40,095 nucleotides of DNA from a virus (taxonomy: Duplodnaviria; Heunggongvirae; Uroviricota; Caudoviricetes), in the IMG/VR virus record IMGVR_UViG_2740892121_000006, positions 1 through 40,095 of that record; one strand, given 5' to 3'. The position numbers and the translations under genes are program-made. The first letter of the stretch is position 1; each line of letters starts with the position of its first letter. The notes beneath the pieces are model-generated. The model searched no databases. It was not told where the DNA came from and saw only the letters and a list, made by a program, of their open reading frames with translations. This document shows positions 1,764-13,732 of the stretch, piece by piece.

Positions 1764-2389
1764 ACCGCCAGCACCTTACTGGCAGTGATGTACCGCGCGC
1801 GCCGGTCGTCGATGCCGTTCCGGCCACCATTGATAATCAGAGTTACACGTGCAATATCGCCGGTATACTTCATGCATCCTTTGCTGGCAAAGAACCACGC
1901 CGCGCTACGAGCCGCGTATTCGTCCTGCGCCAGCAGTTCAGGACTCTCCAGCAGGTCAACCTTAAGACCGTTTCCACAGTCACGATAGTTATTCAAACCG
2001 GTAATCTGGATAAGTCCGCGACCACGGTAATTCCAGCCATCACCAGAGGCATTGTTACCCATGCGTTTGCTGTACACCAGATTTGCGATCGCGCGCTGGC
2101 GCTCAAGTGGCAATGGTGGCTCACCAGCACGGCGGCCCAGTGCGTTAGCCTGTCCCTGGGTGAGACGCCCAGCCCGAACGAAGTTAGCCAGTCCGGTGAC
2201 GCTGTAGTTGAAATTTTCCTGCAACCGGTTGAAGCCACCAGACTCATGCCCGACCTGAGCAATAAACATTGCCTGATCTTCGGGTTTGCTGATACCAAAC
2301 TCTTTCATCGCAGAAGTTATATGCGAGAACCAGCGAGCGGCCAGCGCCTCGCTAATACCAGCAGCTCGCTGGAATTGTTTAATCTCCAT
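1760..2389 (-). CDS. Endolysin, glycoside hydrolase family 19-like (phage lysozyme)
   Basis: Motifs AQVGHESGGF and NYRGRGLIQITG typical of GH19 chitinase-like lysozymes; start moved to MEIKQ (ATG 2389) with SD GAGGT; track ORF extends to 2620. Confidence 0.75.
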   Translation of the reverse strand: MEIKQFQRAAGISEALAARWFSHITSAMKEFGISKPEDQAMFIAQVGHESGGFNRLQENFNYSVTGLANFVRAGRLTQGQANALGRRAGEPPLPLERQRAIANLVYSKRMGNNASGDGWNYRGRGLIQITGLNNYRDCGNGLKVDLLESPELLAQDEYAARSAAWFFASKGCMKYTGDIARVTLIINGGRNGIDDRRARYITASKVLAV

Positions 2390-2687
2390 GTTTAGACCTC
2401 GATATTTTGAAAATATGAACAACGTTACCGCGTGTTTTAATAACCGCGGCAAGCATGACAGCGTTGATAATGACCTCAGATAAATCCACAGCCATTGGCG
2501 TGCGTAACCAGATTGCATAGACGACACGAACAGGAATACTTGCCGCAGCAACAATAAGGAAATAAGCAAGCCACCCTCCCCATCTTCGATGTTGAGAGCC
2601 GTTACGCCGGAATGTGACAACGCGAATTGCTATGCCAGTACAAATAACTGCATTGGTGATAAGCAAAAAAAACTCATGCGTTACCAT
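2379..2687 (-). CDS. Small membrane protein, holin/antiholin candidate
   Basis: 102 aa, about 3 predicted TM segments, SD GGGGAG upstream, immediately 5' of endolysin with 11-nt overlap. Confidence 0.5.
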   Translation of the reverse strand: MVTHEFFLLITNAVICTGIAIRVVTFRRNGSQHRRWGGWLAYFLIVAAASIPVRVVYAIWLRTPMAVDLSEVIINAVMLAAVIKTRGNVVHIFKISRSKHGD

Positions 2688-3078
2688 CGTCTTTTCTCCC
2701 CGGAATTAACTCGCGTGGATTATCGGAACGGTGATAGAGCCAGATGCCAATACGCACGGCGACAATTGCTGACACGAATGCGCCTGCAGAGAAAACAATC
2801 CCTTTTTCAAAAGAGTCCTGCGTGATGGTAGGGATCAGGCTGGCTATGCCGATAAGAATTGATGCTGCTGGTTTGTAAAAGAGAAGGCCGCAAAGAAAGC
2901 TGAGCATCGACAGGAGCACCCGGCGACGGATGGGGTACTCTACTGCAGAGGTAACAAAAATTACCGCCCCAGCCAAAGCCCCTAAAGCAACCTCCGGAGG
3001 GACACCTGCAATAACCGCAGCAAGAGAACTAACACTAAGCCACTGATTTGAAGTTTCATTGGTTAGTTGGAATGACAT
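2674..3078 (-). CDS. Membrane protein, holin-like (first gene of lysis cassette)
   Basis: 134 aa, 3-4 hydrophobic helices; overlaps next gene by 14 nt. Confidence 0.45.
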   Translation of the reverse strand: MSFQLTNETSNQWLSVSSLAAVIAGVPPEVALGALAGAVIFVTSAVEYPIRRRVLLSMLSFLCGLLFYKPAASILIGIASLIPTITQDSFEKGIVFSAGAFVSAIVAVRIGIWLYHRSDNPRELIPGRKDDGNA

Positions 3079-3150
3079 AACGAAACCCGTTTATTTGCAA
3101 ACACCCTGCTTCAGGAAAAGTATACCGCGCAACAACACACCATTTACGGT

Positions 3151-5613
3151 TCAATTCCCTGTTAATTGCAAAACTTGCTCTTCCAGCTTTTTAACCCTGC
3201 GTCTCATCATCGCAGATTCCAGAATCAGAGCCTCTTCATAACGGATACCGTAACATTCACCAGCCTCGACGGCTTCGCGTACCAGAACCTTTGTCTGTAT
3301 AAGTGGGTAAACTCCTGCAGAATGCTCTTCTTCCGTCACATCCCTGTATTCTGCCGGGGTCTCATTCCACTTGTCATAACAGATAAATGCCAGTCGTGAC
3401 ACATCTATGCCTTCATTCTGAAATACACTGATAACATGCTGCGCAACTGCACCAAAGTGCCATCTTGCTCCGTCTTTACCTTTCACTTCGATCCTGTCAA
3501 GGTACTGGTATGAAACCCATTCCACTCTTTCCCATGCGTCCAGTATTTTCTCATCAATAACCTCTGGAGCAGTCTTGAAACGCGCATCGGACAGCACCGT
3601 AAACGCTGACTGGGTAAATCCCCCCGACCATGCACGACCAGCCAACCCAAGAGAATAAGTATTCGTTTTCGATGGTGTCATGGCTGAATCAGAAAACTGT
3701 ATATATTCTGAATTTCCAGTAGATATTCGAATATTTCCATTTATTAGCGACATAGTGCCTTTAGTATTATCACTATTGAATAATTTCAATTGCGAACTTA
3801 TACCGCCTCCCACAGCCAGAGATACATCGCCTTCAGCAAGCATTCTGAATTTATCTGCAGAAACAAGCGTCTGGTTAGCAAGGTTAAAATATTTAACCCA
3901 CCATTCAAAACGCCCTGACATAGTCCCAACGTACTGACCAAGCGCAGGGACGTGAACAACATTGCTATTTGTAGTGCCGTCTATACTGGAAATACCAGTC
4001 ACCGCTGATGCAGAACTCAGAATATTATTTCTGTCACCCGGATGTTTAATTTCAACAAAGTTCCTGATACACCCTTCCTCGAAGGTAACCACGCCGGAAG
4101 AACTATACATGGGGAATATTGACGCATAATTACTGCGTGCAGCATCTAAGAAACGAATGGTTGTAGATGTCTGCAGATCTCCTGATTCATTTTTCCCATC
4201 ACACCCAGTCATTAGAATATTACTGGCAATATTATTATTTCCCTGAACGGTGACGCCGTGCGCCTGCTTTGCGTCCGATTCAGAGTAATCAACCAGCACA
4301 TTCGAAATCAGGTTACCAGTCCCCTTGCCAACAACTACTGCGGCGTATTTTGGGTTGTTAGCCATTACACTGCTAATGATATTATTCGTTGGTGCAGTTT
4401 CCGTCTCAGTTCCATTGTAAACAACGTGCTGACACTCTTCACCAATAACATTGCTGACAATGTTATATTTTGCTGCTGTTTTAAGTTCCACTGCACCAAA
4501 CTGAGGATAATTTCTGGCTATCACACCATCAATTAGCGTATTTTGCGATGAATCAAAAAGCACACAACCTGCTTTTTTATTATTTGCGAACCCTAAATAC
4601 TCTCCTCTTATATCTCTAACAATGTAACCTGACGGAATACCATTATTCGGATAAGCGATCAAGCTAAATCCTGTTCCTCGCGTATTTGTAAATCTGATAT
4701 TTTTAACCGATACATCATGGCCACCTGAAAATGACACCTGGTGTCCCTGCACACTATCATCTGATTTATTTCCCATAATTGTTAGCGTACTAAGCATGCC
4801 ACCATCGGGCATGTTAAAAACCAGATGATTACCATCTCTGTCATACTGTTTTATCGTTCCCCCACCTGTTCCGTACAAGCCACAACGTGAAAGAGAAACT
4901 AAAGATGTATTGAATACCCCTTCCGGAACAAAAACACTGCTAAACGAATGTAATGATTTTGTAAAAGCATCCTTGTTATCATTTAAGATTCCATTTTGAG
5001 CTCCAAAATCCTTAATGCTGACACCATCACGCATCTTATCCTGGAACGTTCTGTATACCGCTCCAGAACCATACTGAATAAACCAACCAAAACCACCAAT
5101 AACTCCGGCGATTGCAGCATCGACATAATTACGCATTGAGCGATTATTTACAGCGTCCTGCTCAAGTGATGGATCGGCAAGGTTAGATATTCTGTTTTGC
5201 TTTGCATCGTAATATTTTGCAAGCAAAGATGGTTTCATCAATGCACGTCTGAACCACCCAAAACATCGCTGGATCAGCATCGTCAGGTAGTCAAATGCAT
5301 CCTCATGAACTTCGGGGAAAAATTTTCCCTGATTGCGAAGATCAGTCTCCTGCACCACATCAAGCACACGCTCTATCGTGATTCGCCAGCCAGCAGCAAG
5401 CGGCGACGGAAGAACCACTGCACCGCCACTATAAGTTCCCGCCCCTGTTACCGTATAACCAGCATCCAGCACTAGTTTTGTAACGTTACCGTTAAGGTCA
5501 GACACCTGAACAACCAGGTCGGATTTTTTGAAAATACGGAAGGTATACGGAAATGATGTCGTAACGCCGTTACCTGTGTATTCGTTGTGGTCAACTTCGG
5601 TTGAGACCGTCAT
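3151..5613 (-). CDS. Tailspike / tail fibre with T7-fibre-like N-terminal anchor and C-terminal S74 intramolecular chaperone
   Basis: N-terminus YTGNGVTTSFPYTFRIF resembles phage tail-fibre N-domain; long Gly/Asn/Ser-rich central region (beta-helix-like); C-terminus SDARFK...GARWHFGAVAQHV matches endosialidase-chaperone (peptidase S74) pattern; SD GGAG. Confidence 0.8.
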   Translation of the reverse strand: MTVSTEVDHNEYTGNGVTTSFPYTFRIFKKSDLVVQVSDLNGNVTKLVLDAGYTVTGAGTYSGGAVVLPSPLAAGWRITIERVLDVVQETDLRNQGKFFPEVHEDAFDYLTMLIQRCFGWFRRALMKPSLLAKYYDAKQNRISNLADPSLEQDAVNNRSMRNYVDAAIAGVIGGFGWFIQYGSGAVYRTFQDKMRDGVSIKDFGAQNGILNDNKDAFTKSLHSFSSVFVPEGVFNTSLVSLSRCGLYGTGGGTIKQYDRDGNHLVFNMPDGGMLSTLTIMGNKSDDSVQGHQVSFSGGHDVSVKNIRFTNTRGTGFSLIAYPNNGIPSGYIVRDIRGEYLGFANNKKAGCVLFDSSQNTLIDGVIARNYPQFGAVELKTAAKYNIVSNVIGEECQHVVYNGTETETAPTNNIISSVMANNPKYAAVVVGKGTGNLISNVLVDYSESDAKQAHGVTVQGNNNIASNILMTGCDGKNESGDLQTSTTIRFLDAARSNYASIFPMYSSSGVVTFEEGCIRNFVEIKHPGDRNNILSSASAVTGISSIDGTTNSNVVHVPALGQYVGTMSGRFEWWVKYFNLANQTLVSADKFRMLAEGDVSLAVGGGISSQLKLFNSDNTKGTMSLINGNIRISTGNSEYIQFSDSAMTPSKTNTYSLGLAGRAWSGGFTQSAFTVLSDARFKTAPEVIDEKILDAWERVEWVSYQYLDRIEVKGKDGARWHFGAVAQHVISVFQNEGIDVSRLAFICYDKWNETPAEYRDVTEEEHSAGVYPLIQTKVLVREAVEAGECYGIRYEEALILESAMMRRRVKKLEEQVLQLTGN

Positions 5614-5716
5614 GTTAAATCTCCAGATAGTCGCAGCACCCGTTGCGCCGCATATCTGGTTATTCTATTACCCAAAAAACCATATATGGATAGAAAGACT
5701 GTGAATATGAATAGAT

Positions 5717-5733
5717 ATTACCTTTCAGGTAAT
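5717..5733. promoter_or_regulatory. 17-bp palindrome ATTACC-N5-GGTAAT (candidate repressor operator)
   Basis: ATTACCTTTCAGGTAAT, perfect 6-bp inverted arms; about 75 bp upstream of small ant-like gene. Confidence 0.5.
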
Positions 5734-5769
5734 TTGCAAAACGTGCTGGATAGCAAACAAATTATTTGC

Positions 5770-5789
5770 TACTGTATAAATATACAGTT
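5770..5789. promoter_or_regulatory. LexA box (SOS operator)
   Basis: TACTGTATAAATATACAGTT = CTGT-N8-ACAG with AT-rich core, 18/20 match to TACTGTATATATATACAGTA; ends 6 nt before the first ATG. Confidence 0.7.
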
Positions 5790-5809
5790 ATTGCATGGAG
5801 AAGATTAAG

Positions 5810-6067
5810 ATGCAGCAGTATCACTATCCACTGGAAGAGGGATTTACCGAAAGGATTCACACGCCGGGAGGCGTCAGGTCACTGGTGGAGGGATCGCACT
5901 TGATGAAATTACTCCGGGATCTCGATAAGGATGGATTTAATGTCGATGGCCCACTTGCCGAACTGACTGCACTGATTAACTACGTCACCAGCTCACAGAT
6001 GTCTATGCAGGATCTGCAAACACATCTCGACTATTGTGCCGAACAATTACGAAAGCAAACCACATAA
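5810..6067 (+). CDS. Small antirepressor-like protein (stand-alone copy of Ant C-terminal domain), LexA-controlled
   Basis: About 40 percent identity by eye to the C-terminal 65 aa of the Ant protein at 7534-8226; start at second ATG (SD GGAG 9 nt upstream); track start 5795 also possible. Confidence 0.55.
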   Translation: MQQYHYPLEEGFTERIHTPGGVRSLVEGSHLMKLLRDLDKDGFNVDGPLAELTALINYVTSSQMSMQDLQTHLDYCAEQLRKQTT

Positions 6068-6090
6068 AGAAAAGGCCGCAAGAGCGGCCA
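6068..6090. terminator. Hairpin terminator between convergent genes
   Basis: Stem GGCCGC / GCGGCC (6074-6089) with loop AAGA; A-run on plus side gives T-run for minus-strand transcript ending gene B. Confidence 0.5.
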
Positions 6091-6597
6091 TTAACAGTCG
6101 AAAAATTCTGGGTCCCACAAACTTGCATCGCGCGGCATGGATTCTAACTTTTTCAGCCGCAAAATTCTGTCACACTCGACAACTAATTTTTGCTTCTGCT
6201 CGTCAATTTCTACTGTCTTATGTGCTGGTTCATCCCAATAATCCAGAAGGAAGGCATGGCGTTCAGATGTGACCAGATAAATCACATACACGTCACTGGT
6301 TGGGATCTTTTTATGCTTGTTAGTGGTCTTGTCTTTCTTCCCAGACGCCCAGTTTTTCCAGCATTGTTCCGTACCGCTCTCACCAAACTTGTCAGTATAG
6401 TTTCCGATGTTTACATGAACGTGGCGTATGTGATATTCCAGCATCTCTTTCGGTGGATCCCGAAACAGAGTGTCCTTTCCGAAATCCTTATGATGACCGT
6501 AGCGCCAGTGATCTATGAACGCGTTTTTGATAGGTATTAGCTCAGGGTCCTTCCCAAAAATTCCAGGGTGAACCAACCCCTGGAATTTATTCGGCAT
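6091..6597 (-). CDS. Hypothetical protein (gene B of two-gene moron operon)
   Basis: 168 aa from ATG 6597 (SD AGGAG), start overlaps last codons of gene A by 11 nt; His-rich segments GHHKDFGKD, HIRHVHV; no family recognised; track ORF extends to 6660. Confidence 0.5.
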   Translation of the reverse strand: MPNKFQGLVHPGIFGKDPELIPIKNAFIDHWRYGHHKDFGKDTLFRDPPKEMLEYHIRHVHVNIGNYTDKFGESGTEQCWKNWASGKKDKTTNKHKKIPTSDVYVIYLVTSERHAFLLDYWDEPAHKTVEIDEQKQKLVVECDRILRLKKLESMPRDASLWDPEFFDC

Positions 6598-8326: not shown

Positions 8327-8346
8327 GTCGATTGGTTGAGGTTCAT

Positions 8347-8673
8347 ATGAGCAGAAGATATGTCAAGGAGCTGGCTATAGAGTCTGGCACCCCTTTGGGT
8401 ATCGTTCCTGGCTCCAACTATGCCAAGGCTTTAAACCGAGACTCTGTCGTCAAAGTTATATCAAGAGACATGAATATGGTCGGAGACGATCTCAGACGGT
8501 CAGAAAATCGTGTTTATGCTGAATATATAGTAAAGAACGGAAAAAAAATTGCAGCGCCTGCTGGCGGAAAATGGGCAATAGTGACAGGGAAAAACTCAAA
8601 TGCAAGAGGAAAACCAGAAGCTAAAGGAATGTCCTTCGACAAATATGCAAAAATCTATTGGGCAACCAAGTGA
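8347..8673 (+). CDS. Hypothetical protein (moron operon, first gene)
   Basis: 108 aa from ATG 8347 with SD GAGGT; basic, no recognised motif. Confidence 0.45.
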   Translation: MSRRYVKELAIESGTPLGIVPGSNYAKALNRDSVVKVISRDMNMVGDDLRRSENRVYAEYIVKNGKKIAAPAGGKWAIVTGKNSNARGKPEAKGMSFDKYAKIYWATK

Positions 8674-9148
8674 TAACGAAGAAACTGAGTTCGAGGAAGT
8701 TGAGGAAGGGCTAAGTAACGAGATCATTCAACACCCAGATGCCTTCACAAGAGTTCTTGATCGCCCTGAAATTCAGGAGATAGTTGTCGCTCACCATGCG
8801 TTTCAGGGTCCGCTTCCTCCCCCCTATCTGCTTCGCGGGTATCAGGATATTTTACCTGATGCCCCCGAACGCATCTTCCAGCTGACGGAGAAGGAGTTTG
8901 CTCACCGCCAGAAAATGGAGGAAAAGGCACTTGACGGGGCTATTAATAGAGATAAACGTGGGCAGTGGTTTGGCCTGAGTGCAACTATTTTTACAGTAGC
9001 TTGTGCAACATTATTAGGTTTAACAGGTCATGAAGTTCTAGCTGGCACAGTGATCGGTACAGTTGTTGCAGTGGCTGGTATTTTCGTTCTTAGACAAAAA
9101 CCAAGCATCAAGAAGAAATCTGAAGACAACAAACCTGAAGAAAAGTAA
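8600..9148 (+). CDS. Membrane protein, acidic N-terminal domain plus two C-terminal TM helices (DUF2335-like by recollection)
   Basis: C-terminal hydrophobic helices FGLSATIFTVACATLLGL and TVIGTVVAVAGIFVL; start ambiguous (ATG 8600 or 8645); overlaps upstream gene. Confidence 0.45.
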   Translation: MQEENQKLKECPSTNMQKSIGQPSDNEETEFEEVEEGLSNEIIQHPDAFTRVLDRPEIQEIVVAHHAFQGPLPPPYLLRGYQDILPDAPERIFQLTEKEFAHRQKMEEKALDGAINRDKRGQWFGLSATIFTVACATLLGLTGHEVLAGTVIGTVVAVAGIFVLRQKPSIKKKSEDNKPEEK

Positions 9149-9169
9149 GCCCGCGCTGCGGGCTTTTTT
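9149..9169 (+). terminator. Rho-independent terminator
   Basis: GCCCGC-GCT-GCGGGC then TTTTTT directly after the TAA of 8600-9148. Confidence 0.65.
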
Positions 9170-9241
9170 GTGGACGAAACAAAAGTCAGTGCTACACTCA
9201 TTAACGCCACATTGAGGTGGCTTATAGATGGAAATTTCACA

Positions 9242-9403
9242 ATGAAAAAAGCATTTGCTGCACTGTTCGTTTTGTTGTCTCTGGTAGCTTCAACTCAGGC
9301 CTTTGCCGGTCGTTGTCAGCACGACAGCGACACTGCTGCTGACGGCTCCCGCTGCGGTGGGCGTTCTGCGGATTCCCGCCCGGGCGGCGGTGGCATTCGT
9401 TAA
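9242..9403 (+). CDS. Small secreted peptide (about 53 aa)
   Basis: MKKAFAALFVLLSLVASTQAFA signal peptide followed by Cys/Gly/Asp-rich 30 aa; ATG 9242 inside longer GTG-initiated track ORF. Confidence 0.4.
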   Translation: MKKAFAALFVLLSLVASTQAFAGRCQHDSDTAADGSRCGGRSADSRPGGGGIR

Positions 9404-9425
9404 AAACAAGGCCGCGAAAGCGGCC
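9404..9425 (-). terminator. Hairpin terminator for minus-strand gene 9440-9889
   Basis: GGCCGC-GAAA-GCGGCC (9410-9425); plus-strand A-run TAAAAACAA gives the T-run for the minus-strand transcript. Confidence 0.45.
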
Positions 9426-9426
9426 T

Positions 9427-9438
9427 GTGACATGTCAC
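9427..9438. repeat. 12-bp perfect palindrome GTGACATGTCAC (copy 1)
   Basis: Identical 12-mer recurs at 29024-29035; related GGCATGTCAC at about 26759. Confidence 0.5.
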
Positions 9439-9439
9439 G

Positions 9440-9889
9440 CTACTTGCGAAATCTTTCTTTACCCTTCCAGCCAGTAGATGTTAGTTCAGGATGAATGGTT
9501 CCCAATATAAAGCCAACCATAGCGGAGCGAGGATCTTCTATTTTATCCGTTAATTCTTCGGCATAACTCACAGGCAACCAAGCAACAAGATCACCAATCC
9601 TCAGCTTTGGTCCTTTGCTGTAAGATGAATCGGCAATAACAAAAAATCCACCATCAGCTGAGCACACCTTCAGCATTGCCCTTTGTCTTCCAGAATCTAG
9701 CAAAACTGGCTGTTCCCCACTTGGACCAGGTATGATGATGGCTGGCATTGGTTTATTGGCTGAAAGGCTTGTGTCAAGATACTTACACGCATACTCAAAA
9801 GCTGAAAAGTTATCCTTAAAGATAAGAGGTTGAATTTTATTGCTAACCTCCTTACCACCGATTAATCTGTTGATCATCTTCTTGAACAT
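9440..9889 (-). CDS. Hypothetical protein
   Basis: 149 aa from ATG 9889 with SD AGGTGA; track start is GTG 9898; no family recognised. Confidence 0.45.
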   Translation of the reverse strand: MFKKMINRLIGGKEVSNKIQPLIFKDNFSAFEYACKYLDTSLSANKPMPAIIIPGPSGEQPVLLDSGRQRAMLKVCSADGGFFVIADSSYSKGPKLRIGDLVAWLPVSYAEELTDKIEDPRSAMVGFILGTIHPELTSTGWKGKERFRK

Positions 9890-9901
9890 AAAGGTCACCT
9901 A

Positions 9902-10342
9902 ATGATTAAGCCGATGCACGCTATTACAGCTACCGTTTTGTTTATCCTACCAATTTTTTCGTTTGCAAACGACATATGTTTTAAGAATTTAATAAATGAG
10001 GATATGTGTGCACATGCAAACAAAATTGCATCAGAAGCAGGAAAGTCACTTCCCATAAAATTGAATGATAATATGTCTATTGTTTCAATAAATGCAATAC
10101 TAAACAAACTTTTAGTTGTAGCGCATCTTAATTACAACAACAGCTATTTATCAAAAGTTTATAACGGTGATGTAACCTTAGAAAATAAATTAAAGAGTGT
10201 AATGCGAAATTATTCAAAATCGAGCATTTGCTCCAACAGGCAAATGAAAGCATTTATTCACCTTGGCGGAGAGATTGAATATAGGTATGTATTTAGTGAT
10301 GGCAATATATTTGATACATACGCCATCACTAATTGTGAATAG
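9902..10342 (+). CDS. Secreted Cys-containing protein of unknown function (AT-rich moron)
   Basis: Signal peptide ending FSFA; 4 Cys; markedly AT-rich coding sequence; SD AAGGT; start only 13 bp from the divergent start at 9889. Confidence 0.45.
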   Translation: MIKPMHAITATVLFILPIFSFANDICFKNLINEDMCAHANKIASEAGKSLPIKLNDNMSIVSINAILNKLLVVAHLNYNNSYLSKVYNGDVTLENKLKSVMRNYSKSSICSNRQMKAFIHLGGEIEYRYVFSDGNIFDTYAITNCE

Positions 10343-13300
10343 CTATTTCATCTGCTCTTCAACTTTATTTAGTAACGGTGATATCGCCCACAGGTTCTGA
10401 AAAGGTAGCATTTTACGGACCGCGTGGGTTTGCTGGCTGTCAAATTCTCCGTTAAGTACACCATTCGCAACCGTCGCGGCATCACCGCCAAGATCAAAGG
10501 TAGGACCAAGTAAAGCACCAATAGCATTACGACTCTGAAACCTTGATACCGGAGGCGCACCAAACATCGCGCCAAGACCAAACCTACCGCCGCTTATGTT
10601 CTCAACGGTATTCAGCGGCTCAGAGAGCCAGCCAAGCATTCCGCCCCGGTCGATCCCCTCTTTCACAAGGTTATTCCAGCTGTAGTCGATATCGCGACCG
10701 CTTAACTTCTGTTTCATCATATAGACCATTGAGCCAAGCGCAATCGTGCCAAGCGCACCAAGATAGAATGCAGCATCGCCCTGCTGGATACCAGATACTA
10801 GCACCCTGTTATGCTGTGCGAAGATAAACGTTTTGAACTGCGTGATCATCTTCCAGCCTTCTTTACTAAAAAACAGCGGTGTATCACCTACGCCAGGCGT
10901 TACAATCACTGAGTCTACATCTTTCAGCACTGCAGACTGGAAAATCTCTCTAGCGAAACGGTCATCCCACAGATGACTATGCCCGGTTAACAGCCCGTCC
11001 ATATCCTCTCCGTGCTTCCCGAATTGCTCCCCGATTCGGCGCAGAACATCTTCATTGATGCCGACCTGTGCCATCTTCCGCATTTCACTTTTGGAGAGCG
11101 TGCCACCAGCAGAAACTTGGCGAGCCGCGTCAAGTATCCTCGACTGCACTATCATCCCGGACCATGATTTAAGTGCGCTGTTCCACTGATTCATCAGCGT
11201 CCAGTTACCGAATTTCTGCGTCATCCAGTTCAGACCTCGCTCAGCGGCGCTTCTCCGGCTATAGGGGTCAGTAAGATCCGCTATAGCCTTTGTACGCGTA
11301 GACAGGACATAATCAAGCCCAACGGCCATTTCTCGCAAATCCCTGGTTGCAATTTTCACTGAGTCCATATTTTTAAGCATGCTTACCATTGGTCCGAGAG
11401 ATTTTCTCAGGCCATGCTGCATCATCGGTCGCATCAGATCAGTTGCAGCGGAGACAGTCATTCCACCAAGCAAACGGAGGAAGTTAATATTCCTAGCAAC
11501 TCGCCCGGCACGAACAAAGAAACTGCGTGGATCTTGAGGTGCACCGTAAGTACCAAGCAGTCGATCACGCATAGCCGTAATATCCCTAATATCAGCCTCC
11601 CGTTGCTTCTCAAGAACTGCACGTCGTTTAGGTGTTTTAGCCTCTTTTATTAGCCGGGTATATTCCTCACTAACCTGACGGATTTGCTCCCCCATATCTT
11701 TACGGCCAAACTGCGCAGTCAGCTCAATTTCTGGTGCCACCTGCCGGAGATAACTTTCCATGATGTAGTTAACATCTGATTCAAGAAAATCTTCTATACG
11801 CTCATCAGGAATAAGCAGCGTTCTGCTTTTAGTGAAACCAGCCCGACCAACGAGTTTCTCTGGGATAATATCGGCTGGTACAAGCCCGGAAGGTGCGCCT
11901 ATTATTTTATTCACGATCTCGTCAGCAGCGTCCTCTGCTTCCTCTCGGGATAGAGGCTCCATCTGCTTCAGTGCTCGTTCGCGGCTTGCATTCAGCCTTG
12001 TGGTTGAATTTGCCCGTTTTTGCAGTCGGCGAAGCTCAGAACGATATTTCCGTGGATTATCCAGCAACTCCATATGGCGCTGATAGACAGGAAGCTCACT
12101 CTTTGCCTGCGCTATATCATCAAGGCGTGTTTTAAGGTCAGAGCTTTCTTTCATCATTCTTGCCTGAAGTTTTTCTGATGAAGTCTCGGCCAACTCTTTT
12201 TCTATTCTTGTAAGACGCGCCTGTGTGTCAGTCTCCTGAGATATAAGCTTATTTCGTTTATCCAGTTCTTCCATGAGTAGAATTTTTTTACCAGACCATT
12301 TCTCCGCTTCAGCGATTTCACTAGCGAGAGCATCAGCGCGCGGTGCCGATTCCTCTGCAGTTTTTAGCAATGAATTTATCCTTTCAATTCGCTGACCTGC
12401 TTTGTCAGCACCTTTGGCACTAATCCCTTGTATCCAGTTGGCAATTCGCCCTCTGAATTCAGTGCGGTCGGAAAGTATCTTATCGAACTTATAAATGCGG
12501 GGAAGATAACTTTTCGCCGTCACGACATCGATATCCTCAGGAAGGATCCCCAGTTCCTGCATACGGGCTTTTGTGGTCTCGAAAATGGGGCGGATTCTGG
12601 CGGCTGCTTGTGAAACCTCAGGAATATCACTCTGATCACCACGGCGCATAGCCATGCCAACAGCTTCATTGAAATCAATAAAGTTCATCCTCTTCACGCC
12701 GCGGGCGCTAACAGATTTGCTGTACTGCTGGTAAGCATCACGAGTGGCTTCCATCTGCTTATAAAGCATGGCGTCGTATTGCTTAATCTTAGTCTCGACT
12801 GCCGTAAACGTAGCCAACCCCTCATCATTTTTGGCGAAGAAATAGTTATTTTCGGCAAGCTGCTGGTTAATCTGACGGGAGACAAGAGATGGTGATTGAG
12901 CCAAGCGGCCAGCAGGAGTGACACTCAACGTTTTGTTAGCAAGTCCAAGTCCAGCGAGCTGTTCCTGATCGAGTGTGGTATTGAAAACCTGAGCTGCACC
13001 AATGCTTTGAGGAGAATCCATACCTCGCAAATGATTACCTACTGAGTTAACCACTGCCTCGCGCGCGCTAGGTCCAGCAAGTAGCTGTGCACCAGCACCA
13101 AGGATCCCACCAACGAGAGCATCAACAACAACGTTCGATACGCTCTCCATCGGTGAGCGAGCTTCCTGAGTGGCCTGTAATGCGGCTTCTGATACTCCCC
13201 CACCAGCAGCATTCGCCAGGGCAAAACGCCCTGCCGTCTCAGCAATACTTCCTCCACGCGCTACCGCCCCTACAGGGATAAACATTGCAGCCACATTAAC

Positions 13301-13732
13301 CGGGTCTATCATTCCCATTGCTAAGCTTGAAATAGTACCAGCACCACCCATTTCAGATAGATATTCTCTATCTGTTCTTTGCTTATCGATTCGATGTTTA
13401 ATTGCCATTGTTTCTTCATGCGAACCGGAGTTGATAAACGAATCTGCAAAATCTTCATAGCCTTTAATATCTGCTGCATCGTTATCAAATGGGTTATATC
13501 CTTCAACCCTGTCAAACTGACTGAAAGGAGCACTGGCAATAAAGCTACCCAGCGTGTTATCTATACGAAATGCTGCTTGTCTAGACCTTTGAACGCGTTG
13601 ATCACTGGTAAATGGGTTCACAGCAGAAAGCAAAGAAGGTGTTTCCATATAGAAATTACTGTCATCAGGTGCTGCTATTTGCTGAATATCCTCGCCAAGC
13701 AACTCTTTAGGATCCTGTTCATATATCGGCAT
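10343..13732 (-). CDS. Large internal virion / ejection protein (1129 aa)
   Basis: Gly/Ala-rich N-terminal region, long central coiled-coil (residues about 450-620); position equals T7 gp16 slot. Confidence 0.45.
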   Translation of the reverse strand: MPIYEQDPKELLGEDIQQIAAPDDSNFYMETPSLLSAVNPFTSDQRVQRSRQAAFRIDNTLGSFIASAPFSQFDRVEGYNPFDNDAADIKGYEDFADSFINSGSHEETMAIKHRIDKQRTDREYLSEMGGAGTISSLAMGMIDPVNVAAMFIPVGAVARGGSIAETAGRFALANAAGGGVSEAALQATQEARSPMESVSNVVVDALVGGILGAGAQLLAGPSAREAVVNSVGNHLRGMDSPQSIGAAQVFNTTLDQEQLAGLGLANKTLSVTPAGRLAQSPSLVSRQINQQLAENNYFFAKNDEGLATFTAVETKIKQYDAMLYKQMEATRDAYQQYSKSVSARGVKRMNFIDFNEAVGMAMRRGDQSDIPEVSQAAARIRPIFETTKARMQELGILPEDIDVVTAKSYLPRIYKFDKILSDRTEFRGRIANWIQGISAKGADKAGQRIERINSLLKTAEESAPRADALASEIAEAEKWSGKKILLMEELDKRNKLISQETDTQARLTRIEKELAETSSEKLQARMMKESSDLKTRLDDIAQAKSELPVYQRHMELLDNPRKYRSELRRLQKRANSTTRLNASRERALKQMEPLSREEAEDAADEIVNKIIGAPSGLVPADIIPEKLVGRAGFTKSRTLLIPDERIEDFLESDVNYIMESYLRQVAPEIELTAQFGRKDMGEQIRQVSEEYTRLIKEAKTPKRRAVLEKQREADIRDITAMRDRLLGTYGAPQDPRSFFVRAGRVARNINFLRLLGGMTVSAATDLMRPMMQHGLRKSLGPMVSMLKNMDSVKIATRDLREMAVGLDYVLSTRTKAIADLTDPYSRRSAAERGLNWMTQKFGNWTLMNQWNSALKSWSGMIVQSRILDAARQVSAGGTLSKSEMRKMAQVGINEDVLRRIGEQFGKHGEDMDGLLTGHSHLWDDRFAREIFQSAVLKDVDSVIVTPGVGDTPLFFSKEGWKMITQFKTFIFAQHNRVLVSGIQQGDAAFYLGALGTIALGSMVYMMKQKLSGRDIDYSWNNLVKEGIDRGGMLGWLSEPLNTVENISGGRFGLGAMFGAPPVSRFQSRNAIGALLGPTFDLGGDAATVANGVLNGEFDSQQTHAVRKMLPFQNLWAISPLLNKVEEQMK

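Follow-up and report, generated by a model that had tools for sequence, protein, structure and literature searches.

Why would a temperate phage keep two genes head to head with their start codons 13 bp apart, and what does the exported product of the more AT-rich of the two do? The question is raised by positions 9,440 to 10,342 of a viral DNA of 40,095 nucleotides (nt), which spans positions 1 to 40,095 of IMG/VR record IMGVR_UViG_2740892121_000006 and is called the window below. Sequence comparison identifies the window as an E. coli prophage, that of a phiV10/epsilon15-like temperate podovirus. A preliminary description of the pair had offered either a mutually exclusive expression switch or an effector with its control partner. 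The explanation favoured here, which as a whole is given a little less than an even chance, is that the two genes (A and B) form an accessory ('moron') cassette, that B acts as a periplasmic superinfection-exclusion factor, and that their junction couples the two genes through antisense transcription. The features on which the argument turns are the following.

9440..9889, minus strand: gene A, starting with ATG, 149 amino acids (aa), the last gene before the late-operon terminator (open reading frame (ORF) list and the annotation pipeline PGAP)
9890..9901, no strand assigned: head-to-head spacer of 12 nt, AAAGGTCACCTA, with both Shine-Dalgarno (SD) elements inside it
9902..10342, plus strand: gene B, a 146-aa precursor, phrog_8772 (ORF list and PGAP)
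9902..9967, plus strand: signal peptide of B, 22 aa, MIKPMHAITATVLFILPIFSFA, followed by NDIC and lacking a lipobox (alignments)

The head-to-head arrangement, with the ATG of A at 9889 on the minus strand and that of B at 9902 on the plus strand, is confirmed by the sequence and the ORF list; the first bases of the two start codons are 13 nt apart, leaving a 12-nt spacer. In E. coli strain 2/0, PGAP calls the same two genes, both as hypothetical proteins (WP_000473936.1, 149 aa; WP_000595048.1, 146 aa). Judged by codon conservation, A and B are both genuine genes under purifying selection. Over five diverged collinear cassettes, codon positions 1 and 2 are 86% identical, while third positions are 55% identical in A and 69% in B, and the protein identity of homologues falls as low as 57% for A and 27–30% for B. 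Conservation of only one of the two frames, which the preliminary description had named as the outcome that would speak against it, was not what was found.

A and B make up a 903-bp cassette between the last internal-virion (ejection) gene and the terminator of the late operon. This operon runs on the minus strand and encodes three large internal virion proteins of 823, 915 and 1129 aa, the second with a transglycosylase, and the tailspike gene lies further along. The two borders of the slot are formed by the following features.

10343..13732, minus strand: gene of an ejection (internal virion) protein of 1129 aa, phrog_342 'internal virion protein with endolysin domain' (E = 8.5e-235)
9401..9426, minus strand: intrinsic terminator, 14 nt after the stop of A, with a 7-bp GC stem (AGGCCGC/GCGGCCU) and a U-tract

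The stop codon of the 1129-aa gene directly abuts that of B, so that the two genes are convergent. The terminator (dG −16.5 kcal/mol, z −2.3) ends the late-operon strand; it is kept in about 500 E. coli genomes, and the phiV10 record labels the homologous stretch 'terminator'. Homology to about 500 E. coli genomes and prophages breaks exactly at 9441–9449 and at 10343, and the cassette is carried by 14 of the 523 genomes with related prophages. A and B are therefore a discrete cargo cassette, consistent with horizontal acquisition. Its base composition deviates as well: windowed GC content is 31.7% in B and 41.8% in A, against 48.4 ± 4.1% (standard deviation) in the window, and B is the lowest-GC 441-nt stretch in the 40 kb. 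The earlier remark that B is far more AT-rich than its surroundings is thus correct, and the horizontal acquisition proposed from it is supported by the exact homology breaks, the 14 carriers and the extreme AT bias. Other prophages hold unrelated genes of 98, 126 and 283 aa in the same slot, all co-oriented with the late operon, for which searches of Pfam, NCBIfam, PADLOC and PHROGs returned nothing beyond function-unknown PHROGs. The slot is a cargo hot spot, and A and B are an accessory, moron-type cassette, a discrete insertion into otherwise near-identical phage genomes.

The protein encoded by B is made for export. Its signal peptide is of the typical n-h-c Sec type, ends in SFA|ND and is the sole hydrophobic segment of the protein. 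The Ala at position −1 (Ala-22) is invariant in 18 homologues, as are all four cysteines (26, 36, 110 and 145) and an LGGE-x-x-Y motif, so that the signal peptide and the four cysteines noted earlier are upheld. A lipobox or signal peptidase II site was not found in B, where N-D-I precedes the first Cys, and most homologues also lack one. The family comprises nine close and about 20 more distant homologue clusters, with hosts in Escherichia, Klebsiella, Salmonella, Providencia, Morganella, Cedecea and Symbiopectobacterium and a 28%-identical form in Mesorhizobium. B has no match in Pfam, NCBIfam or PADLOC and only a function-unknown PHROG; a PDB sequence search with the B profile gave nothing meaningful, and in a tblastn search of 50,697 deposited phage genomes B was absent. 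The Mesorhizobium relative (locus L020, 944-1645, plus strand) retains all four cysteines and lies outside any podovirus prophage. Its neighbours at 1843-6455 encode transmembrane/coiled-coil and OmpA/MotB-like proteins, with ZorA/ZorB-like PADLOC matches (E 1e-5 to 1e-3) that are too weak for use.

The structure-based homology search that had been recommended for B points to a known fold class. An AlphaFold2 model built from an 18-sequence alignment has a pLDDT (predicted local distance difference test) of 84.9, exceeding 90 across the mature domain. Its predicted topology, alpha1, beta1-3, alpha2, alpha3, beta4-5, is that of the AspS / T2SSS_2 fold, with an extra helix after beta3 as noted for PA3611 (PMC3542185), and the best structural matches are the secretin pilotin AspS and PA3611. 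In V. cholerae AspS, a conserved disulfide (Cys74-Cys111) ties alpha2 to the C-terminal element (PMC3542185). When mature B is aligned globally with E. coli YghG/AspS (z 3.0, identity 15%), its C110 and C145 stand opposite C94 and C131 of YghG, the positions of the conserved pilotin disulfide. The pilotin family PF16549 (T2SSS_2) gave sub-threshold matches from 2 of the 18 B relatives (E = 0.055) and was the only Pfam family matched more than once; B of the window itself did not match it, and the Pfam gathering threshold was not reached. The hhalign comparison of the B profile with E. coli YghG was not significant (probability 2.4%), and PF12843, the family of PA3611, was matched by none of the 18 members even at E up to 5.

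B differs from both proteins in ways that bear on its function. Unlike AspS/YghG (GspS-beta, PF16549), it is not a lipoprotein and lies outside any type II secretion system (T2SS) operon, in a prophage cargo slot; the model also suggests an additional N-terminal disulfide pair, together with the extra helix after beta3. PA3611 (PDB 3npd; DUF4146 / PF12843 QSregVF_b) resembles B more closely in having a signal peptide without lipobox, an AspS-like fold and the same extra helix. It is described as a periplasmic protein that is not a lipoprotein and has a hydrophobic surface groove (PMC3542185). However, the two share no detectable sequence relationship, and PA3611 is a chromosomal Pseudomonas gene rather than prophage cargo. 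On the model, the most fitting description of B is that of a soluble periplasmic protein which belongs to the AspS/PA3611 fold class or resembles it by convergence; lacking a lipobox, it is not a pilotin.

The position of B in podovirus genomes gives a further clue. On the annotated map of P22, the ejection gene 16 converges with sieA, which is preceded by orf59a and mnt, while arc, ant and gene 9 run divergently from mnt. In a Klebsiella relative and in locus L040, an ejection gene converges with B, which is preceded by an mnt-like gene, and arc, ant, a terminator and A follow in the divergent direction. The mnt-like proteins match P22 Mnt at E = 4e-13 and 1e-8. Across the family, B converges in 32 of 39 distinct loci with an ORF of about 960-1160 codons that is no more than 100 nt away, usually 0-4 nt, and it stands between the last ejection gene and immI or the tailspike gene on the strand opposite the late operon. 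Like sieA, it is convergent with the stop of the last ejection gene, lies beside mnt, arc-ant and the tailspike gene, and must be crossed in antisense by late transcription. Judged by synteny, B occupies the sieA-equivalent position of a different podovirus lineage, the window being epsilon15-like rather than P22-like and lacking mnt and arc, so that A abuts B directly. What appears new is the B family itself: an uncharacterised, AT-rich group with a predicted periplasmic AspS/PA3611 fold that keeps to podovirus ejection genes, at the equivalent of the sieA locus.

Two phage proteins offer precedents for what B might do there. SieA is a polytopic protein of the inner membrane which prevents DNA injection and blocks the ejection-protein conduit; escape mutations map to the C-terminal regions of gp16 and gp20, and the mechanism of conduit blocking is still unclear (PMC10883804). 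It shares the locus with B, whereas B, with its cleavable signal peptide, is predicted to be soluble and periplasmic. Spackle (gp61.3) of T4 is a small soluble periplasmic protein, made with a signal peptide, that excludes superinfection by inhibiting the virion-borne lysozyme (PMC7677548). Its likeness to B is one of class only, that of a small exported soluble phage protein, and a shared function is hypothesised; Spackle is an early gene product of a lytic phage, whereas B is prophage cargo. In mechanism, Spackle is the nearest precedent for an exclusion factor that is soluble and periplasmic.

The exclusion reading of B would run as follows. B would be expressed from the prophage, exported by its Sec signal peptide, and folded in the periplasm into a disulfide-stabilised alpha/beta domain of the AspS-pilotin / PA3611 type. 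Proteins of this type bind a peptide or helix of a partner in a hydrophobic groove; B has no lipid anchor. From locus, compartment and fold together, we infer that B binds a periplasmically exposed partner, most likely the ejection machinery of an incoming phage, be it the exposed part of the ejection-protein conduit or its transglycosylase. Its site of action would be the envelope, and superinfection exclusion its most likely role, with P22 SieA, which sits at the same locus, and T4 Spackle, which is soluble and periplasmic, as functional analogues. The position of B 0-11 nt behind the mnt-like gene, a lysogen-maintenance repressor gene, in Klebsiella and L040 is the strongest available hint that B is expressed from the prophage. 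A confidently predicted peptide-binding fold, the sieA-equivalent locus and a near-invariant link to ejection genes make this reading concretely testable. Temperate podoviruses keep accessory genes beside their ejection genes, of which only P22 SieA has been studied there; if B does bind ejection proteins, a pilotin fold would have been recruited for periplasmic antiviral gatekeeping.

Several points weigh against this reading. B has no sequence similarity to SieA types A-C (BLASTP E = 13) and does not share their polytopic inner-membrane topology. All links between B and AspS at the sequence level are sub-threshold (the hhalign result above among them), and a Foldseek search of viral models (BFVD) with the B model gave no match at E<=0.001. 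The relative in Mesorhizobium adjoins no ejection gene. Finally, a pilotin fold suggests binding to a secretin rather than to ejection proteins.

In another explanation, B would serve lysogenic conversion, its target being the host cell machinery or an animal host and not phages, with A and the junction as already described. We hold this to be unlikely, if well worth considering. In one version, B would be a soluble 'decoy pilotin': by attaching to a secretin's S-domain (T2SS GspD-beta, type IV pilus or filamentous-phage secretin), it would change how that secretin is targeted; AspS does bind the GspD S-domain (PMC3542185), and 5zdh is the complex. Another would make it a released virulence-type protein like P. 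aeruginosa PA3611, which is reported to be secreted and to act on epithelial cells (PMC8860233). Either version would agree with the structure search, in which a secretin pilotin and PA3611 matched best; PF12843 proteins are reported to be frequent in temperate marine viral genomes (PMC8407431), and the strains carrying A and B include E. coli from urinary tract infections, cattle and birds. However, the B family is found in prophages of Salmonella, Providencia, Morganella, Cedecea, Klebsiella and Symbiopectobacterium, nearly always at an ejection gene and whatever secretion systems the host has. Moreover, the lipid anchor by which pilotin function is defined is missing from B, the B locus is the equivalent of P22 sieA, and B has no Pfam-level membership in PF16549 or PF12843. 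Were B an ordinary conversion gene after all, the cassette would be a routine prophage moron.

A more specific form of the exclusion reading can also be put forward. B may represent a new exclusion class, a soluble non-lipidated 'pilotin mimic' that, in the periplasm of the lysogen, captures an amphipathic C-terminal helix of the ejection proteins of an incoming podovirus, as AspS does with the secretin S-domain, and stops the assembly of the DNA conduit. Its expression would be hard-wired to lysogeny because its promoter would lie in a late-strand gene and late transcription would run antisense through it. In this full form the proposal is doubtful.

Whether A and B form one system was addressed by a census, in which hidden Markov models of both families were run over all fetched loci and individual locus maps were drawn. 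Six configurations were found. In the first, A and B are head to head at exactly 12 nt, with proteins diverged to 64-68% identity. In Cedecea they are again head to head, at 19 nt, with A 57% and B 30% identical. In the third, seen in Klebsiella and in the much more distant IMG/VR lineage L040, a P22-type immI module stands between them, so that ant and A follow arc on one side and B follows the mnt-like gene on the other. B occurs alone in Providencia, Salmonella, Morganella, Symbiopectobacterium, Mesorhizobium and about 15 IMG/VR contigs, and A occurs alone in L059, directly after a late gene. In the sixth, A is head to head with a different gene, B'.

This B' (147 aa; L058 4544-4987 and L066 2545-2988, both minus strand) has the signal peptide of B and its junction with A, followed by an unrelated mature domain with two cysteines and no PHROG. 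Outside the signal peptide it resembles neither B nor YghG. The recombination breakpoint between B and B' falls exactly at the signal-peptide cleavage site. The signal peptide is a module that stays conserved when another mature domain follows it.

Alignments also indicate that A and B have discordant histories and recombine independently: between the window and L062, A is 66% and B 82% identical in nucleotide sequence, while between L060 and L062 the values are 88% and 73%. The two genes are associated, yet separable, and are not an obligate effector/partner pair. The suggestion of an effector with its control partner is thereby contradicted, since B is found without A in at least five genera, A without B, A with B', and immI between the two, with discordant phylogenies and products in different compartments.

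An obligate two-component system, in which one gene would encode an effector and the other its regulator, immunity protein or antitoxin, is accordingly very improbable. The head-to-head co-occurrence in several diverged lineages and the immI-type loci, which retain both genes on either side of the same module, would fit such a system. Obligate co-occurrence and co-inheritance, as expected of a toxin-antitoxin (TA) or effector-immunity pair, were not found: besides L059, A lacks B in more than 300 clusters elsewhere. Neither gene matches known TA or defence models in PADLOC, Pfam or NCBIfam, and direct contact between the products is unlikely because A has no export signal and B is exported.

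A is treated here as an independent cytoplasmic accessory gene. Its product is a domain of about 130 aa without signal peptide or transmembrane segment, with the motifs FKD..AFEYACK, LPAIV.D, LKV.S.DGGF and GDLV.W. It belongs to phrog_9944 (E = 1.4e-92), a family of unknown function into which all 74 diverse members that were checked also fall. There are 13 close homologue clusters, and an exhaustive HMMER search gave 307 representative clusters at 50% identity. No match to A was found in Pfam, which has no model for the domain, in PADLOC or NCBIfam, or in the PDB searched with the A profile, and structure prediction yielded no reliable model. By tblastn, the 50,697 phage genomes contained one distant match and Burkholderia-group plasmids two; cluster names of the distant relatives were uninformative. 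Among proteins of the A family (P0034-P0181), the domain stands alone, in tandem (Burkholderia), after N-terminal transmembrane segments or after a zinc ribbon, and it is also fused to a Zeta-toxin-type kinase.

A is co-oriented with the late operon and ends at the terminator of this operon. Against A as a purely late gene stands a distant homologue (29% identity) in Acinetobacter phage MD-2021a (L068, 4896-5387, plus strand), which lies immediately downstream of a CI-type repressor gene. The slot directly after such a gene is a classic position for accessory genes expressed in the lysogen, like lambda rexAB.

What, then, does the junction do? With its 12 nt it is a compact overlapping initiation region, which we count as new. 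The SD elements named in the preliminary description, AGGTGA for A and AAGGT for B, both lie within it: the former is the complement of 9895-9900 on the minus strand, 5 nt before the ATG of A, and the latter, AAGG(T), occupies 9891-9895 on the plus strand, 6-7 nt before the ATG of B. An in-frame GTG at 9898 would extend A to 152 aa. In the context CAT-AAAGGYCACCNA-ATG, the spacer is exactly 12 nt long in E. coli-type cassettes diverged to 64-68% protein identity; L058 has 13 nt and Cedecea 19 nt. A palindrome in the spacer, AGGT-N-ACCT, was considered as an operator and rejected because it is not conserved, most cassettes having GGCCACC instead.

It had also been claimed that each promoter must lie inside the coding sequence of the other gene. 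For B, the claim has comparative support; A, in contrast, needs no promoter inside B because it is co-oriented with the late operon and the terminator follows it, which leaves read-through as an alternative. The candidate promoters are listed here.

9840..9868, plus strand: candidate promoter P_B, −35 TTGCTA at 9840-9845, 17-nt spacer, −10 TAATCT at 9863-9868 (position weight matrix scan)
10278..10305, minus strand: candidate promoter within B in the A sense, TTGCCA-16-TATATT, 388 nt upstream of the ATG of A

P_B is embedded in codons 8-17 of A, with a predicted start near 9875, about 27 nt before the ATG of B. It is the top B-sense site in the scan of the window with a sigma-70-type matrix and the best by minimum score over the five collinear cassettes (7.7, against 4.3 for the runner-up). 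Upstream of B, the highest-scoring site lies at this codon position in each of the eight head-to-head cassettes (8/8); in Cedecea it reads TTGCCA-17-TATTCT. No site was found at this position in the three loci in which A and B are not adjacent (L059, Klebsiella = L008, and L040), and in the A genes of the immI type the N-terminal residues 2-18 in which it lies are missing. Over codons 1-40 of A, third-codon-position identity is raised (0.66-0.68, against 0.43-0.55). Taken together, the comparisons support a promoter for B embedded in A and hence antisense coupling. On the other side, P_B scores only 7.7 bits; the synonymous-shuffle null is modest (p 0.009-0.21), with p 0.08-0.21 for most cassettes. 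A stricter consensus scan did not list P_B, and the raised synonymous conservation could reflect recombination history and not a promoter.

The same weaknesses feed a further explanation, in which the tight head-to-head arrangement is a neutral scar left by deletion of an immI-type module (arc-ant and mnt), with no regulatory coupling and with any expression coming from distant or fortuitous promoters. This is improbable. Relatives do carry the module between A and B, the two genes recombine independently, and AT-rich DNA gives many promoter-like sites, whose counts in the consensus scan do not exceed those in shuffled sequences; P_B is individually weak. However, the spacer keeps its exact 12 nt, a conserved sequence and two SD elements in the diverged E. 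coli-type cassettes, and the arrangement is retained in Cedecea, where B has only 30% identity. Against a scar also stand the presence of P_B in 8/8 head-to-head cassettes, its absence from 3/3 non-adjacent A genes and the missing N-terminal residues of the immI-type A genes; junction and signal peptide are kept even when the mature domain of B is swapped.

The A-sense candidate promoter inside B is of uncertain status. It is kept in the five B-type cassettes, where it lies in the most conserved protein segment of B, and is not conserved in the B' or Cedecea cassettes. It would give an RNA antisense to most of B. From gene order, transcription of A may instead come by read-through from the late operon, in the way that P22 gene 9 is expressed by read-through across sieA/immI. 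At the immI-type loci, a GC-rich hairpin with a T-run lies between ant and A on the A-sense strand (L008 4425-4475; L040 3275-3320), similar to t_ant of P22 before gene 9. Simple co-transcription of A with ant was rejected because this intrinsic terminator lies between them; A in these relatives would depend on read-through or antitermination. After B, the search for terminators found none.

As the gene geometry dictates, any A transcript is antisense to the 5' end of B and vice versa, so that the earlier statement that the mRNA 5' ends are mutually antisense holds. In the favoured explanation, P_B inside the first 17 codons of A would drive B, while A-sense transcription, by late read-through and/or from the promoter inside B, would run antisense through all of B. 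With A-sense RNA antisense to all of B and P_B within the transcription unit of A, mutual interference is to be expected and the expression of A and B should be anticorrelated: B would be expressed in the lysogen and silenced by late transcription. The mutually exclusive switch first proposed is plausible on these grounds. The Pant/Psar interference modules of P22 are similar in that opposed transcription units overlap and one transcript is antisense to the other gene; here, the starts are 12 nt apart and the candidate promoter lies inside the first 17 codons of the partner. If so, the junction would be a compact natural example of antisense-coupled expression.

Some minor observations concern the neighbourhood. 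An Rfam scan of 8800-10800 gave no match. The 1129-aa protein bears the RefSeq label 'DUF919 family protein' on the basis of a 46-residue match to a baculovirus family (E = 5e-5); in PHROGs, the entire protein falls in phrog_342. One more gene forms the left flank of the slot.

9242..9403, plus strand: 53-aa secreted-peptide gene ('transmembrane anchored protein'), phrog_14503, outside the cassette

Its product has a signal peptide and a 30-residue tail rich in Cys, Gly and Asp, with a weak sub-threshold match to the His-Xaa-Ser repeat protein HxsA3 (E = 0.021). The gene is found at more than 95% nucleotide identity in about 500 E. coli genomes, a far wider spread than that of the surrounding genes. 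Two overlapping plus-strand genes, 8332-8673 (113 aa) and 8600-9148 (182 aa, DUF2335 membrane domain), move as a unit. In L040 this unit is placed between B and the ejection gene (5584-6394), and in E. coli strain 2/0 YafO-family toxin genes stand at the equivalent place. The whole region from 5.6 to 10.3 kb, from the tailspike gene to the ejection genes, is mosaic.

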